DNA of 64,000 nt from an uncultured virus (IMG/VR IMGVR_UViG_3300025132_000029) (IMGVR_UViG_3300025132_000029); one strand, 5' to 3'; shown: positions 9,697 to 53,152, counted from the first letter of the stretch. Numbers and translations: made by a program. Notes: generated by a model from the sequence alone, not told the origin.

Positions 9697-12126
9697 ATGC
9701 AATTAGGAAACTGGCTAGCTGAACAAATACTTTTAGAGCAATCTAATATAAAAACCGTTGTTGCAATTTACCCAGGTAGATTTCAACCAATGGGAAAACA
9801 TCATGCACAAACCTACCGTGCACTAACATCAAAGTTTGATGATGTTTGGGTTGCAACAAGTGGAAAGGTTAGTCTTCCAAAGTCACCGTTTTCTTTTGGT
9901 GAAAAAAAGAAGATAATAAACTCTCATGGAATATCAAAGGTAAAACAGGTCAAAAATCCATACCAAGCTACAGAGATATTAAATAAGTATGACCCAGAAA
10001 CAACAGCTGCCGTATTCATTGTTGGCAAGAAAGATGCAAGCAGATTAGGAGGCAAGTTTTTTAGGCCCTGGAAGGGTAAAGCACAAATCGGATATAAGGA
10101 TGGCGCATATACATATATAGCACCACATGTGTCCCTAAGTGTTCCAGGCTATGGAGAAATGAGTGGAACTGCAATACGTAAAGCTCTAGGCGATACATCA
10201 CTTGAAAAGAAAGATAAAGTAAAAGTATTTAAGGGAATATTTGGCCACACAAAAAATTATGATTTCATTGTAAAGAAACTTGAAAAGTTAAATGAGATTG
10301 TTGAAGGCTTTGTAAATAGTTTTGATTTTAGTAAATTTATTAATGAAACATCAGCAACACCAAATAATAATTCAGATGTAGATGATGGACCAAGATATTT
10401 TTATGGCTATCAAAAAGCGTATAGGGAATCCACAGCTGAGATTGCAAAGAGCTTAGGTATGAGTGTATTAAATTATATTGTTGGTGATGAAGAGTTTTTT
10501 CAACATGACACTGTATACCCTAATGGTCCAACTGGTGCCGTTTCATATTTTCCAACAGGTGTACCCGGCCAACAAACTGGTACAAATGTTTACAAAGACT
10601 CAGTTGGAAAAGTTGCATATAAAAAATACATAGAACACATTTCGTCTGTTGCACAACAAGTTGGTTATAAGTTTATTGATTTTATTAGTTTAGATAAATT
10701 TATAGATGATAGTCCAGACGAACCAAAAAACATTACCAAATATGATTTAACAGAAAACATAAATTTACCAATAGAGGTTGGTGATACTGTTATGATGGGA
10801 AAGTTCAAAAATAAAAAAGTTGTTGTTAAAGATATATCTTGGAATGATAAGGGTGACTTATTAATAAATGGAAGACCTGCATTAAAAATTAGAATACCTA
10901 AAAAACAAAATATATTTAATGAAGGTTTAATTTTAGAAGGTGGTGCATACGGTCATATGTCTCACCCATTTGATGATAAAGGCTTAACATTTGGTGATTT
11001 CAAAAAAATAATTGAACTAGGACTTCAAGGAAGTATAGATTTAGAACAATCAGCAACTGAAAAAACAGATGGTCAAAATTTATTTATTAGTTGGAATAAT
11101 AAATTAGTTGCTGCAAGAAATACTGGTGATATAAAGCGTGGTGGAAAAGATTCTAAAGCAATTGCAAAAAAGTTTGCTGGCAGAGGAAATATAGAAAAAG
11201 CATTTAATTATGCAATGAGAGATTTATCAAAGGCAATTGGTGGATTGAGTGATAAACAAAAAAAGAAAATATTTGATGATGGAAACAACTGGGTGAATAT
11301 GGAAATAATGTACCCGGCATCCTCAAATGTAATTAATTATGATGCACCATATTTACAATTTCACAATGTATTAAAATATAAAAATGGAAGTGCAGTTGGT
11401 GCCGTACATGATGGTGCAAGAATATTGGCTGGAATGGTTAAGCAAACAAATCAAAATGTACAAAAAAGTTTTAGTGTTATTGGACCTAAAATATTAAAGG
11501 TTAAACCTCATCAAGATTTTGGTGCAAAAAAATCATACTTTATTGGAAAGCTTAATAAATTGATGTCAAAATATAATATGGGAAATAGTAATACATTTGG
11601 CGAATATCATCAGGCATGGTGGGAAGATTATGTTGAAAAGAATTTAGGTGCAGTTGACAATACAATAAAGATGGGCTTGGTTAAACGCTGGGCATTTTTT
11701 GATAAATCATTTAGGTTAAATTCAAAAACAATTCCAGATAAAGACATCTTGACAAAAGTTATTGAAATTGACAAACAAAAACATGTAGACCAAGTAAAGA
11801 AAAATATGTTTCCATTTGAAACTTTGTTTTTTGAATTAGGTGCTGAGGTACTTAAAAATGTAGAAGGCTTTCTAGCCGGAAATCCAGAAAAAGCAGTTCA
11901 AAATGTTAGAAGACAAGTTGCAAAAGCAATTGGTGATGTTAGAAAAGGCGGTGACCTAAAAAAATTAAATAGATTAACACAACAACTTGAAAAGATAAAG
12001 GCTATTGGTGGATTCAAAACAATCATACCAAGTGAAGGTTTAGTTTTTATTTATAAAGGAAAAACATATAAGTTAACAGGAAGCTTTGGACCAGTAAATC
12101 AAATCACTGGATTGATGAGCTTTTAG
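9697..12126 (+). CDS. Multidomain protein: N-terminal cytidylyltransferase-like (HIGH superfamily) domain and C-terminal RNA-ligase-like nucleotidyltransferase domain
   Basis: YPGRFQPMGKHH and MSGTAIRKAL motifs; EKTDGQN (KxDG), NMEIMY, SEGLVF, YKLTG resemble ligase motifs I/III/IV/V. Confidence 0.7.
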   Translation: MQLGNWLAEQILLEQSNIKTVVAIYPGRFQPMGKHHAQTYRALTSKFDDVWVATSGKVSLPKSPFSFGEKKKIINSHGISKVKQVKNPYQATEILNKYDPETTAAVFIVGKKDASRLGGKFFRPWKGKAQIGYKDGAYTYIAPHVSLSVPGYGEMSGTAIRKALGDTSLEKKDKVKVFKGIFGHTKNYDFIVKKLEKLNEIVEGFVNSFDFSKFINETSATPNNNSDVDDGPRYFYGYQKAYRESTAEIAKSLGMSVLNYIVGDEEFFQHDTVYPNGPTGAVSYFPTGVPGQQTGTNVYKDSVGKVAYKKYIEHISSVAQQVGYKFIDFISLDKFIDDSPDEPKNITKYDLTENINLPIEVGDTVMMGKFKNKKVVVKDISWNDKGDLLINGRPALKIRIPKKQNIFNEGLILEGGAYGHMSHPFDDKGLTFGDFKKIIELGLQGSIDLEQSATEKTDGQNLFISWNNKLVAARNTGDIKRGGKDSKAIAKKFAGRGNIEKAFNYAMRDLSKAIGGLSDKQKKKIFDDGNNWVNMEIMYPASSNVINYDAPYLQFHNVLKYKNGSAVGAVHDGARILAGMVKQTNQNVQKSFSVIGPKILKVKPHQDFGAKKSYFIGKLNKLMSKYNMGNSNTFGEYHQAWWEDYVEKNLGAVDNTIKMGLVKRWAFFDKSFRLNSKTIPDKDILTKVIEIDKQKHVDQVKKNMFPFETLFFELGAEVLKNVEGFLAGNPEKAVQNVRRQVAKAIGDVRKGGDLKKLNRLTQQLEKIKAIGGFKTIIPSEGLVFIYKGKTYKLTGSFGPVNQITGLMSF

Positions 12127-49819: not shown

Positions 49820-50596
49820 ATGGCACTAGATTTAGAAGCAATCAGACAGAAGTTGAACAAACTTCAAACACAGACGGGAAAACAAGACAATTTATGGAAA
49901 CCCGAACCAGGAAAAAATCAAATTAGAATTGTACCTTATCAGCATAATAAAGACAATCCGTTTTTAGAAATGTATTTTCATTATGATTTAGGTAAAAAGA
50001 ACTACTTATCACCTGTAACATTTGGTGAAGCTGACCCAGCAGTTGAATTTGCTGAAAAGTTAAAAGCTACAGGAAATAAAGACGATTGGCAAATGTCAAG
50101 AAAGTTAGAACCAAAAATGAGAACTTATGTTCCTATTCTTGTAAGAGGAAAGGAATCAGAAGGTGTTAAATATTGGGGATTTGGAAAAACAGTTTACCAA
50201 GAATTATTAAGTTTTATAGCTGACCCAGACTATGGAGATATTACGGACTTAAGTGGAGGTAGAGATGTTGTTGTTGAATACCATACACCTGAAGAAGCAG
50301 GTAATAGCTTTGGTAAAACTACTATTAGAGTTAAGCCAAACCAAACTGCTGCAACAGAAGATAAAAATGTTGCTGAAAAAATTCTAAATGGACAAAAAGA
50401 TATTTTTGAAATCTTTAGAAAAGTTTCTTACGGTGACTTAAAGCAAGCTTTAGAAGAATGGCTAAACCCAGATGGTGATACAGGTGGAGCTCCACAAGTT
50501 GATACACCAGCACAATCTACTTCACAAAAGGTAGAGTCACAAGGTGTAAAATCATCTGATGATATTAACAAAGCGTTTGACGATTTATTTAGTTAG
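49820..50596 (+). CDS. Single-stranded DNA-binding protein (gp32-like)
   Basis: LWKP..G...IRIVP, YWGFGKTVY, YGDITD...GRD, acidic DDLFS tail. Confidence 0.9.
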   Translation: MALDLEAIRQKLNKLQTQTGKQDNLWKPEPGKNQIRIVPYQHNKDNPFLEMYFHYDLGKKNYLSPVTFGEADPAVEFAEKLKATGNKDDWQMSRKLEPKMRTYVPILVRGKESEGVKYWGFGKTVYQELLSFIADPDYGDITDLSGGRDVVVEYHTPEEAGNSFGKTTIRVKPNQTAATEDKNVAEKILNGQKDIFEIFRKVSYGDLKQALEEWLNPDGDTGGAPQVDTPAQSTSQKVESQGVKSSDDINKAFDDLFS

Positions 50597-50606
50597 GAGA
50601 TAGTAT

Positions 50607-51734
50607 ATGGCAAAGAAAGTAAATACAAAGAGAGATGATTTAGCAAATTTGTTGGCAGATAGTCTTAACAAAAAGTTTAAGGACTATAAAGTTGCTTACT
50701 TTCTTGACGGTACAGAAGAAACACCAACTGACTTAACAGAGTGGATTAGTACTGGGTCATCTATGCTTGACTTGGCAATTTCTAACAGAAAAAATGGTGG
50801 TATACCAGTTGGTAGAATTACTGAAATAACTGGTCTTGAAGGTAGTGGGAAGAGTCTTATGGCTGCTCACCTACTTGCAAATACACAAAAACAAGGTGGA
50901 CTTGCAGTTTACATTGATACAGAAAATGCAATGAATGAAGAATTTGCTACGGCAATTGGAATTGATGTTGCAAATATGTTATATATTCAATTGGAAACTG
51001 TTGAGGAAATTTTTGAGGTTATGGAAAACATCATCACTAAAGTTAGAGAAAGTGATAAAGATAGGCTTGTTACAATAGTTGTAGATTCATTGGCTGGCTC
51101 AACAACCAAAGTTGAGAGTGAGGCTGATTATAGCAAAGATGGCTGGGCAACCAGTAAGGCAATTATTTTATCAAAGGCTATGCGTAAGATTACTCAAATG
51201 ATAGGAAGGCAGAGAATTTGTCTCGTATTTACAAACCAACTTAGACAAAAGATGGGGGTTATGTTTGGTGATCCTTGGACTACATCTGGAGGTAAGGCAG
51301 TAGCTTTCCATTCCAGTTGTAGACTAAGGCTAAAACCTATGGGACAAATAAAAGCCAGAGTTGATGGTCAAGAACAAGTTATGGGTATTAAAACCGTTGC
51401 ACAAGTTGTAAAAAATAGAATGGGCCCACCATTAAGAAAGTCACAATTTGAAATTTATTTTGAAAGTGGTATTGATGATTTTGGTGGATGGTTACATGTT
51501 CTAAAAGATTACAAACTTGTTAAGCAAGGTGGTAGTTGGTACACATATACTGACCAAAATGGTAAGGACCATAAATTTATGTCAAAGGATTGGAATTCAT
51601 TATTGGAAAACAATGAAGAACTAAGAACAGAAATTTATGATAAAATTGCAGATACAATTATTATGAATTACAAAGTTGATAATTTTGGAATTGATGATGT
51701 TGAAATCAGCAGTGAACCAGTACCAGAAGGATAA
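50607..51734 (+). CDS. uvsX: RecA/UvsX recombinase
   Basis: GLEGSGKS Walker A, YIDTE, IVVDSLA, NQLR, TSGGKA, KNRMGPP. Confidence 0.95.
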   Translation: MAKKVNTKRDDLANLLADSLNKKFKDYKVAYFLDGTEETPTDLTEWISTGSSMLDLAISNRKNGGIPVGRITEITGLEGSGKSLMAAHLLANTQKQGGLAVYIDTENAMNEEFATAIGIDVANMLYIQLETVEEIFEVMENIITKVRESDKDRLVTIVVDSLAGSTTKVESEADYSKDGWATSKAIILSKAMRKITQMIGRQRICLVFTNQLRQKMGVMFGDPWTTSGGKAVAFHSSCRLRLKPMGQIKARVDGQEQVMGIKTVAQVVKNRMGPPLRKSQFEIYFESGIDDFGGWLHVLKDYKLVKQGGSWYTYTDQNGKDHKFMSKDWNSLLENNEELRTEIYDKIADTIIMNYKVDNFGIDDVEISSEPVPEG

Positions 51735-51746
51735 TAGGTTATGAAT

Positions 51747-51778
51747 AAGTAATTGGTGGCTAACCCCACCTTTTACTT
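51747..51778 (+). other. Stem-loop immediately 5' of the ribozyme cleavage site
   Basis: AAGTAA-tt-GGTGG-ctaacc-CCACC-tt-TTACTT. Confidence 0.65.
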
Positions 51779-51779
51779 C

Positions 51780-51870
51780 GTCTTACACAACAACAGCCTT
51801 CTCGTGGCGTAGGATGTTAAGGTCAAAAATCCGCACTTATCGAATGATTATTTGACCGACCAATGTTGTT
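51780..51870 (+). ncRNA. HDV-like (CPEB3-type) self-cleaving ribozyme
   Basis: P1 GUCUUAC/GUAGGAU with G1.U wobble; J1/2 AC; P2 AACAACA/UGUUGUU; P3 GCC/GGC; L3 UUCUCGU; GU after P1; P4 GGUCAAA...UUUGACC; J4/2 CCAA with candidate catalytic C51860. Confidence 0.85.
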
Positions 51871-51878
51871 AACGAGTG

Positions 51879-51998
51879 ATTTGTCTTTGGCCAAGTGACC
51901 CCAAAGCAAATTTATGATTAAGGTATATGTGGCTGATACCAATTGTTCTCTAATCGTCACTGTTGGAGATACTATAAACATATACTATGTCAGCTTGG
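51879..51998 (+). ncRNA. Unidentified multi-pseudoknot RNA domain downstream of the ribozyme
   Basis: Hairpins 51879-51911 and 51947-51969 with complementary loops (AGTGAC/GTCACT); crossing helices 51923-30/51978-85 and 51931-38/51988-95. Confidence 0.5.
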
Positions 51999-52037
51999 AA
52001 GCCCTGGATTTGTTTTATCAATGAAGGGGCTTTTTTT
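51999..52037 (+). terminator. Intrinsic terminator closing the uvsX-ribozyme transcript
   Basis: AAGCCCT...GGGGCTT followed by T tract. Confidence 0.6.
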
Positions 52038-52043
52038 ACCAAA

Positions 52044-52077
52044 AATATTTTTTTATCCCAAATAAAATAGTTATATT
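52044..52077 (+). promoter_or_regulatory. Putative class-2 promoter
   Basis: AATATTTTTTTATCCCAAATAAAATAGTTATATT. Confidence 0.55.
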
Positions 52078-52102
52078 ATACTAAACAAAAAGATAATAGC
52101 AT

Positions 52103-53152
52103 ATGTCAAAAAGCAGATACTTTTCAATACTTGAAACACTACAGGAGAATACTGATACTCCTTCTAACCCCAATGATAGAATATTAATCGTTGACGGGCT
52201 AAATACATTTATCAGAGCATTTGCAGCAAACCCAGTAACAAATGAAGATGGAATACATGTTGGTGGAATAACTGGTACACTAATGTCAATTGGATACGCA
52301 ATAAAACAAATTAAACCAACACGTGTTATTATTTGTTTTGATGGAAAAGGTGGTAGCCAAAGAAGAAGAAAAATATTTCCAGATTATAAAGCAAATCGTA
52401 GAGTAAAATCTAGGCTTACACGGCATGGAAATCATAATACAATGGAAGATGAATCATTGTCTATGAAACAACAATTAATGAGGTGTGCTCAATATTTACA
52501 ACAATTACCAGTTACTGTTTTAAGTGTTGAAAATATTGAAGCAGATGATAGTATGGCATATATTTCTCAACAGGTATATCCTGATAGTCAAAAGTTTATT
52601 ATGTCAACAGATAGGGATTTTTTACAATTAGTATCTGACAAAGTACATGTATGGTCACCAACAAAAAAGAAGTTTTATTTTAAGGAAACAATAATGGAAG
52701 AGTATGGTATACCATCTCATAACTTTTTATTATATAGAACAATTGAAGGTGATTCATCTGATAATATTCCAGGAATTAGAGGTGCAGGTAGAAAAACTAT
52801 TGCAAATAGAATTCCTATAATAACAGAGAACAGGACAGTAACTATTGATGAAATAATTGATTTTACAGCACAAAATTCAAAATATAAAATATTAAAAACA
52901 ATTTCTGAATCAAAAGAATTGTTAGATATGAATTATAAATTAATGCAATTGGATGAGGTAGATATATCAGGTTCAGCAAAGACAAAGATAATGAATACGG
53001 TAAGGTCACCTATCCAACGATTAGTAAAATATGAATTTCAAAAAATGATTTTAGAAGACAAAATCAATGGTTCAATTAAAAACCCAGACTTATGGTTAAA
53101 GCAAGTATTTTTACCATTAGACTCTTATGCAGGAATGACAAATGACAAGTAG
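52103..53152 (+). CDS. 5'-3' exonuclease / T4 RNase H-like flap endonuclease
   Basis: LIVDGLN, CFDG, YKANR, EADD, STDRDFLQL, GDSSDNIPGIRGAG.KT. Confidence 0.93.
   Translation: MSKSRYFSILETLQENTDTPSNPNDRILIVDGLNTFIRAFAANPVTNEDGIHVGGITGTLMSIGYAIKQIKPTRVIICFDGKGGSQRRRKIFPDYKANRRVKSRLTRHGNHNTMEDESLSMKQQLMRCAQYLQQLPVTVLSVENIEADDSMAYISQQVYPDSQKFIMSTDRDFLQLVSDKVHVWSPTKKKFYFKETIMEEYGIPSHNFLLYRTIEGDSSDNIPGIRGAGRKTIANRIPIITENRTVTIDEIIDFTAQNSKYKILKTISESKELLDMNYKLMQLDEVDISGSAKTKIMNTVRSPIQRLVKYEFQKMILEDKINGSIKNPDLWLKQVFLPLDSYAGMTNDK

Follow-up and report, generated by a model that had tools for sequence, protein, structure and literature searches.

A candidate HDV-like self-cleaving ribozyme downstream of a RecA gene in an uncultured marine phage, and its relatives

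The region downstream of a RecA/UvsX-type recombinase gene in an uncultured virus (IMGVR_UViG_3300025132_000029) holds, at positions 51780-51870 of the + strand, what is likely to be a true self-cleaving HDV-like ribozyme, with a predicted cut at 51779/51780. Positions refer to the whole 64,000-nt stretch of DNA that was analyzed, here called the window. A preliminary description of this DNA had proposed a nested double-pseudoknot ribozyme of HDV type at the site, and the proposal is supported by covariation in four helices, by an invariant cytosine at C51860, and by marine RNA contigs whose alignments begin at 51780. Comparison with its relatives indicates that the element very probably represents an uncatalogued family of HDV-like ribozymes in uncultured marine phages, absent from Rfam.

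Architecture of the element and its locus

The recombinase gene (50607..51734, + strand, 375 aa), a bacterial-type RecA by Pfam (RecA, 8.6e-59), forms the upstream cistron and is preceded by a gp32-like gene (49820-50596, + strand; Pfam gp32, 2e-13). The downstream cistron is a 5'-3' exonuclease gene (52103..53152, + strand; Pfam 5_3_exonuc_N, 2.5e-33). The gap between the recombinase and exonuclease genes measures 368 nt (51735-52102), and the predicted cut site falls 45 nt past the recombinase stop codon; both distances, and the position of gp32 upstream of the recombinase, are as first described. An interrupted hairpin (AAGTAA..GGTGG / CCACC..TTACTT, 51747..51778, + strand) with a folding energy of -13.5 kcal/mol stops 1 nt before the cut site, and a scan for terminator-like sites gave a match within it, at 51755-51770. 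Toward the far end of the gap, a terminator-like hairpin (AGCCC...GGGGCT) followed by a T run (52000..52037, + strand) was read from the sequence and is paired in the minimum free energy (MFE) fold of the gap; it was missed by the simple scan because its loop exceeds the 8-nt limit of that scan.

All helices, joiners and the loop of the element lie on the + strand, and a sequence check of P1, J1/2, P2, P3, L3, the GT, P4 and CCAA found each at the coordinates first assigned to it. The 5' strand of P1, GTCTTAC (51780-51786), pairs with GTAGGAT (51809-51815) in 7 of 7 positions, including a G51780.U51815 wobble at the cut-site end and one internal U.G. J1/2, read from the sequence, is A51787 C51788 (51787-51788) and leads into the 5' strand of P2, AACAACA (51789-51795), whose partner TGTTGTT (51864-51870) forms the end of the ribozyme as judged by the sequence, the model match and covariation. 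P3 (GCC/GGC, 51796-98 and 51806-08) encloses a 7-nt L3, TTCTCGT (51799-805). The segment 51809..51820 comprises the 3' strand of P1, then G51816 and a TTAA joiner, so that GT follows P1 directly (51816-17); the putative P1.1 would consist of one C-G pair (C51801-G51816) plus U.U. P4 is a stem-loop with one bulge (51821..51857) and is recovered by the MFE fold. It is followed, in 51858..51863, by GA (51858-51859) and by J4/2, CCAA (51860-63), in which C51860 is the proposed general-acid cytosine; G51858-A51859 had been given no role in the preliminary description. The predicted scissile bond, C51779|G51780, lies directly before the first base of P1, and the alignments of our covariance model and of Rfam RF02682 both start at 51780.

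A generic HDV-type descriptor run over both strands of the window matched once, at this site, and on dinucleotide shuffles it gave a mean of 0.025 matches, with 1 of 40 shuffles having any. The covariance model, based on relatives, gives this site a score of 80.2 bits (E 1e-18). Its second match in the window (11993-12057, - strand, 15.5 bits, E 0.17) is antisense in an 809-aa ORF and has neither P1 nor the CG of L3, and we regard it as chance. Pseudoknot-free MFE folding gives P1, P3 and P4, both for the stretch alone and for the whole gap. The folding energy of the stretch is ordinary (z-score -0.27; 73 of 200 shuffles are as stable), and for this reason the argument is made from comparative and RNA evidence rather than from folding energy. 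Taken alone, the single sequence is suggestive, not decisive.

Relatives, covariation and HDV-type residues

A RecA protein search gave 80 related loci on viral contigs (72-100% aa identity), 19 of which carry the element: 18 copies were found by descriptor, all on the RecA strand, and one copy cut by a contig end was found by the covariance model, which gave no further copy in the remaining 61 RecA loci. A degenerate pattern for the core DNA matched 58 places in viral contigs. Thirty-eight matches are genuine (on about 38 contigs), 37 of them having a perfect 7-pair P1 together with the remaining architecture and 1 being cut by the contig start; a further 19 all represent one GC-rich coding stretch, in which P1 reaches 4/7 and which we attribute to chance, as we do the match L109. 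A similar pattern applied to metagenome contigs, with largely marine record names, gave 85 places, of which 80 were examined. The model matches 79 of these 80 loci at E<=0.001, and 78-79 are genuine; one copy (L198) runs off the end of its contig, and one match (L228, 29.7 bits), without P1 and P4, is probably chance and was left in the covariation count. When one genome from each of 185,579 prokaryote species was scanned with the pattern, 2 matches were returned, both chance at 11-13.5 bits, and blastn with one family member found no match in 50,697 GenBank phage records. Of the named phages, those closest in RecA are Microcystis phage Mel-JY01 (54% aa) and an uncultured 484-kb phage, and neither has a copy; one copy is present in G001, the 170.8-kb record that comes nearest to the window.

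The covariance model was built from P2, P3 and P4 only and the alignments were fitted to these helices; P1 was left out and therefore stays an independent test. The viral alignment comprised 28 distinct sequences (26 delimited by script, with L004 and L087 added by hand; duplicates and two truncated copies, L110 and L134, were left out). In this set 99.7% of cells are paired and 13 of 29 pairs have changed on both sides (47 cells); 0 of 500 shuffles scored as high, and with the partners slid by 1-3 columns 33-45% of cells were paired. Among 69 distinct metagenome sequences (from 79 matches), 99.4% of cells are paired, with compensatory changes at 20 of 29 pairs (118 cells), namely 3/7 in P1, 7/7 in P2, 1/3 in P3 and 9/11 in P4; none of 500 shuffles reached these values on any of five measures. 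The sets overlap: the viral set shares 22 of the 69 metagenome rows, the other 47 being new. The collecting pattern fixes P3 and L3 for the most part, and P1' in part, so that invariance there is uninformative. In both sets these levels of pairing are found with the HDV-like strand order P1, P2, P3, L3, P3', P1', P4, J4/2, P2'. The covariation in related phages that had been named as a check was thus seen as compensatory changes in P1, P2, P3 and P4, and on these comparative grounds we regard the nested double-pseudoknot fold as proven.

RNAalifold, unaided, recovers P1 and P4; its P3 is a shifted 5-pair helix that is broken in 2 of the 28 sequences (the clade of the window), whereas the HDV-type P3 is kept in that clade through an exchange of G-C for A-U. 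The outer P3 pair (n=69) is A-U in 63, G-C in 2, U-A in 1 and G.U in 3. One divergent member, L173, has wholly different P2 and P4 sequences that are nevertheless paired around the same core, and in it, too, a hairpin ends just before G1.

The first position of J4/2 (alignment column 96), which lies outside the search pattern and corresponds to C51860, is occupied by C in all 67 of the sequences that have a letter in that column. The catalytic role earlier assigned to C51860 remains a prediction, to which this invariance lends weight. The A that precedes this C is conserved as well, as is the final A of J4/2, giving a J4/2 of C-Y-R-A. G1 is found in 69/69 (G.U in 63, G-C in 5, unpaired in 1), and at position -1 the 69 distinct flanks have 35 T, 31 A, 3 C and no G. 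All members have a 3-bp P3, an L3 of 7-8 nt and an L3 C facing the G after P1, but these features are fixed by the pattern and are uninformative. The 5' side of the P4 apical loop reads C-N-C-A-C (mostly TCCTCAC) in 63-67 of 67 sequences (alignment A5, columns 56-60), while the pairs of P4 vary freely; L173 is without this motif. The conserved loop could make a tertiary contact or serve for binding.

In the search with Rfam models that had been suggested earlier, there were 0 matches in the window at gathering thresholds. The sole models that align are of HDV type and start at G1, in particular RF02682 (Faecalibacterium prausnitzii HDV-like), which scores the window at 15.5 bits (E 2) and the relative L048 at 26.3 bits (E 0.0019), below its cut-off of 44; for neither sequence did the Rfam CPEB3 or HDV model yield a hit at E<=10. 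The Rfam HDV-type models have narrow seed sets and a short P4, and the RF02682 alignment skips the long P4. RF02682 is the nearest catalogued family, and the window shares with it the strand order P1-P2-P3-L3-P3'-P1'-P1.1-P4-J4/2-P2', a 7-bp P1 with a G.U, a 3-bp P3, a 7-nt L3 and the C that opens J4/2; P1, P3 and L3 align from G1. Unlike RF02682, the family has a much longer P4 with a conserved loop, a P1.1 of one C-G plus U.U, and marine phages as carriers; in the window there are 2 extra nt between P4 and the catalytic C, and the scores of 15.5-26.3 bits compare with the cut-off of 44. The L3 and J4/2 patterns and the one-pair P1.1 presumably resemble those of the CPEB3 ribozyme, and the overall fold is that of HDV. 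That ribozyme is a mammalian intron element, whereas the element described here resides in phage DNA, and neither the CPEB3 nor the HDV model matches it at E<=10, so that the CPEB3-like label of the preliminary description needs qualification.

RNA at the predicted cut site and the downstream element

Four marine metatranscriptome runs, from one study and at most three samples, contain contigs over 51400-52300. In X2 (depth 33) and X3, a 157-nt contig aligns to 51780-51933. In X4, a 232-nt contig from a variant resembling L002 (9 differences, 1 insertion) aligns to 51780-52008, and in X1 a 153-nt contig aligns to 51856-52006. The contig alignments of two strain variants thus start exactly at 51780, the predicted first base of the 3' product, with 2-3 letters per contig beyond 51780 that do not align to the window. 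This result has force because 51780 had been predicted exactly beforehand, and the X2, X3 and X4 alignments agree with the cut at C51779|G51780 to the extent that contigs can: assembled contigs are no formal proof of an RNA end, and the same picture would result if transcription started, or an RNase cut, at 51780. No contig in the four runs lies on 51400-51779, the side of the recombinase gene, or past 52008, an absence of cover that proves nothing alone.

The marine RNA contigs cover a second conserved feature, a structured non-coding element at 51876..52000 (+ strand) that would lie on the 3' cleavage product of the ribozyme. It consists of a hairpin with a GTGACC-type loop, a GCTGATACCAA core, an invariant GCTGAWACCAA, a ACTAGAAAA stretch, an enclosing covarying helix and a strong terminator at its end. 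The element is common to L002, L003 and L004 and is also found in RecA loci that have no ribozyme (L006, L009, L012, L019, L027, L031, L034 and L039), directly after RecA in many; copies lie at 4129-4281 in L003, 4114-4281 in L009 and 4120-4289 in L034. A strict pattern for it matched the window's own clade only, although the element itself is wider, and RNAalifold on 12 downstream elements gave just one 5-pair helix. Rfam has no family for 51876-52000. A match to the yeast C/D-box snoRNA snR41 (51908-51956, 21.5 bits, E 0.36) is almost certainly spurious; the box-like motifs beneath it, ATGATTA...CTGA, are conserved. An ORF of 36 codons (51915-52023, 36 aa) overlapping the element was rejected as a gene, its start and frame being lost in L003 and L004.

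Genomic context, alternative readings and possible role

Copies of the ribozyme are always intergenic and sense to both neighbors. Among the upstream neighbors are RecA, a DUF4494 protein of 65 aa, a methyltransferase and others; downstream lie the 5'-3' exonuclease, homologues of ribosomal protein S21 (L090, 1317-1688; L135, 781-1122, - strand) or an Hsp20 (L091, 629-1063, - strand), all by Pfam, and in L096 a tRNA and then an S21 homologue (855-1052, - strand; Pfam). A tRNA gene (Ala, Gln or Pro) abuts the 3' end of the ribozyme in 6 of 88 contexts, starting 0-3 nt after the model match, and a same-strand tRNA is found within 500 nt downstream in 13 of 88. The statement in the preliminary description that no tRNA is adjacent therefore stands for the window, where no tRNA gene was found in the 64 kb, and does not extend to these six relatives. 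A stable hairpin ends 0-9 nt before G1 in 31 of the 69 distinct upstream flanks, against 58 of 690 after shuffling of the flanks and 9 of 68 for windows taken 150 nt further upstream; these hairpins are of several unrelated sequences, and the 69 flanks are unrelated to each other. In L003 (92% RecA identity) the hairpin and ribozyme are both missing, while the flanks align and the downstream element stays.

The probability that short complementary words in an AT-rich spacer fell into this arrangement by accident is close to nil. The unremarkable energy of the single-sequence fold and the loose descriptor, which matches in 1 of 40 shuffled windows, would allow it, but accident does not explain compensatory changes and conservation over about 70 distinct sequences, a model E-value of 1e-18 at the site, or RNA contigs whose alignments begin at the predicted base. 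The conserved double pseudoknot might instead serve the downstream RNA as a 5' stabilizer or a protein-binding domain without cutting itself, and a promoter or a host RNase would then account for the RNA 5' end at 51780. Contigs cannot separate a cleaved from a primary end, the conserved CNCAC of the P4 loop suggests a binding site not needed for catalysis, and the element falls below all Rfam thresholds. However, the family preserves the residues important for HDV chemistry (G1.U, the C of L3 together with the G that follows P1, and the invariant C at the head of a C-N-R-A J4/2), and in two strain variants the RNA starts exactly where P1 does. The sequences also make a promoter at 51780 unlikely as the source of the contig start, because a scan found no promoter-like site 5' of 51780, the 69 flanks are unrelated, and some ORFs end 4-10 nt before G1, which leaves no room for a shared promoter. 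We judge a non-cutting RNA decidedly improbable.

Most relatives carry GCCTTTT(A)TTTTT right after P2, and the clade of the window, which is without this T tract, has a separate terminator about 165 nt further on; both observations would fit a ribozyme that doubles as an intrinsic terminator, P2 closing before the T tract to release the polymerase and the RNA then cutting itself off the message. We give such a dual role a small chance. The tRNA genes that begin just past this tract, 0-3 nt after the match, in 6 of 88 contexts have no room for a promoter, so that read-through must be common; in L096 a tRNA follows the complete T run, P2 of the window is not followed by such a run, and the A/T richness may belong to the promoter region of the next gene. 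The presence of an HDV-like ribozyme in a phage, with tRNA genes near some copies, also recalls the theta ribozymes, which would make the 3' ends of phage tRNAs. In the accessible part of Kienbeck et al. 2024 (PMC10879173), these are described as minimal and P4-less, from gut Caudoviricetes (>80% gut phages), with a cut site <=5 nt from a tRNA 3' end; 526 copies are listed there as having no tRNA association and an unknown function. By that account the marine family is like theta in being phage-borne, of HDV type, in non-coding DNA and sense to its neighbors, and unlike it in keeping a covarying P4 of 37-46 nt (9/11 pairs) and in having a tRNA 3' end at the cut site in 0 of 88 contexts, the adjacent tRNAs sitting instead at the 3' end of the ribozyme. 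With no tRNA of any kind in the window, a theta-type role is barely credible, and the earlier view that this is not a theta ribozyme holds, given the long P4 and the lack of a tRNA at the cut site.

On the preferred reading, that of a self-cleaving HDV-like ribozyme, the element would be transcribed within the gp32-RecA message, fold into the nested double pseudoknot and cut itself at its own 5' edge (C51779|G51780), with C51860 acting as general acid. HDV-type ribozymes leave products with 5'-OH and 2',3'-cyclic phosphate ends. The upstream RecA message would then end 1 nt past the hairpin in a 2',3'-cyclic phosphate, and the downstream product would carry a 5'-OH, with the compact ribozyme first and the non-coding RNA after it up to the terminator near 52037. 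This product may accumulate as a separate stable RNA and be the molecule seen in the metatranscriptomes. We put the chances at about even that the ribozyme serves in this way as a message separator, cutting the RecA/UvsX message off a stable downstream RNA.

The arrangement suggests that a cassette of hairpin plus ribozyme was inserted between RecA and the non-coding RNA, and the same cassette would stand in relatives ahead of tRNA, S21, Hsp20 or 5'-3' exonuclease genes. Because it occurs in varied intergenic sites, it could be viewed as a portable punctuation mark, separating what becomes of the upstream message from what becomes of the downstream RNA. Our more tentative proposal, for which the odds are somewhat against, is that this RNA punctuation cassette of marine phages hops between intergenic sites and that its P4 loop docks a host or phage factor. 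If that were true, the cassette would act without a terminator or host RNase; upstream messages, with their hairpin and cyclic phosphate, would resist 3' exonucleases and tailing; and downstream RNAs (the non-coding RNA, tRNAs, S21 and Hsp20), with a 5'-OH and a knotted cap, would resist decay that depends on the 5' end. The window would then be the first such ribozyme caught working in the sea.

The HDV-like ribozymes of R2 and other non-LTR retrotransposons sit at the 5' end of the transcript, free the downstream RNA and stay attached to it. By analogy, the phage ribozyme would likewise stand at the 5' end of a useful downstream RNA freed from an upstream co-transcript, although the R2-type elements are eukaryotic mobile elements with their own ORFs, whereas what lies downstream here is a non-coding RNA of the phage, a tRNA or an ordinary phage gene. 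Very few of the HDV-like ribozymes of bacteria and phages have a known biological role. As far as the accessible part of PMC10879173 describes it, the one worked-out phage role is the trimming of tRNA 3' ends by theta ribozymes, which are P4-less gut-phage forms. An HDV-like ribozyme with P4 from an Ackermannviridae phage is reported, in the portion of the article available, to be active in vitro and to be inactivated by a C-to-U change in J4/2 (Lilley and co-workers 2026, PMC13635239), and the same portion gives Weinberg et al. 2015 as its origin. As described there, it resembles the marine family in its HDV type, its P4 stem and its dsDNA phage carrier and differs in phage group and habitat, and blastn against the 50,697 phage records gave no sequence match. 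Our literature search found no paper on a P4-bearing HDV-like family in marine dsDNA phages; the alignments of Weinberg et al. 2015 might include members. The present family is full-length, occurs in abundant uncultured marine phages and has a recurrent context of hairpin, cut, ribozyme and cargo RNA, and such ribozymes may be self-contained makers of message ends and separators in phage operons. The family would also bring a well-populated alignment to the RNA family catalogues, from which it is now missing.

Two further features of the surrounding DNA were observed. An AT-rich motif, TTTTTATCCCAAAT...GTTATATTAT, lies just 5' of the exonuclease gene (52043-52096) and recurs elsewhere in the phage and its relatives; by its sequence it looks like a phage promoter consensus. 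The loci L010 (1819-1995) and L013 (2611-2780) are near-identical, and a tRNA-Ala(TGC) that lies 2 nt past the P2 strand in L010 is absent in L013.
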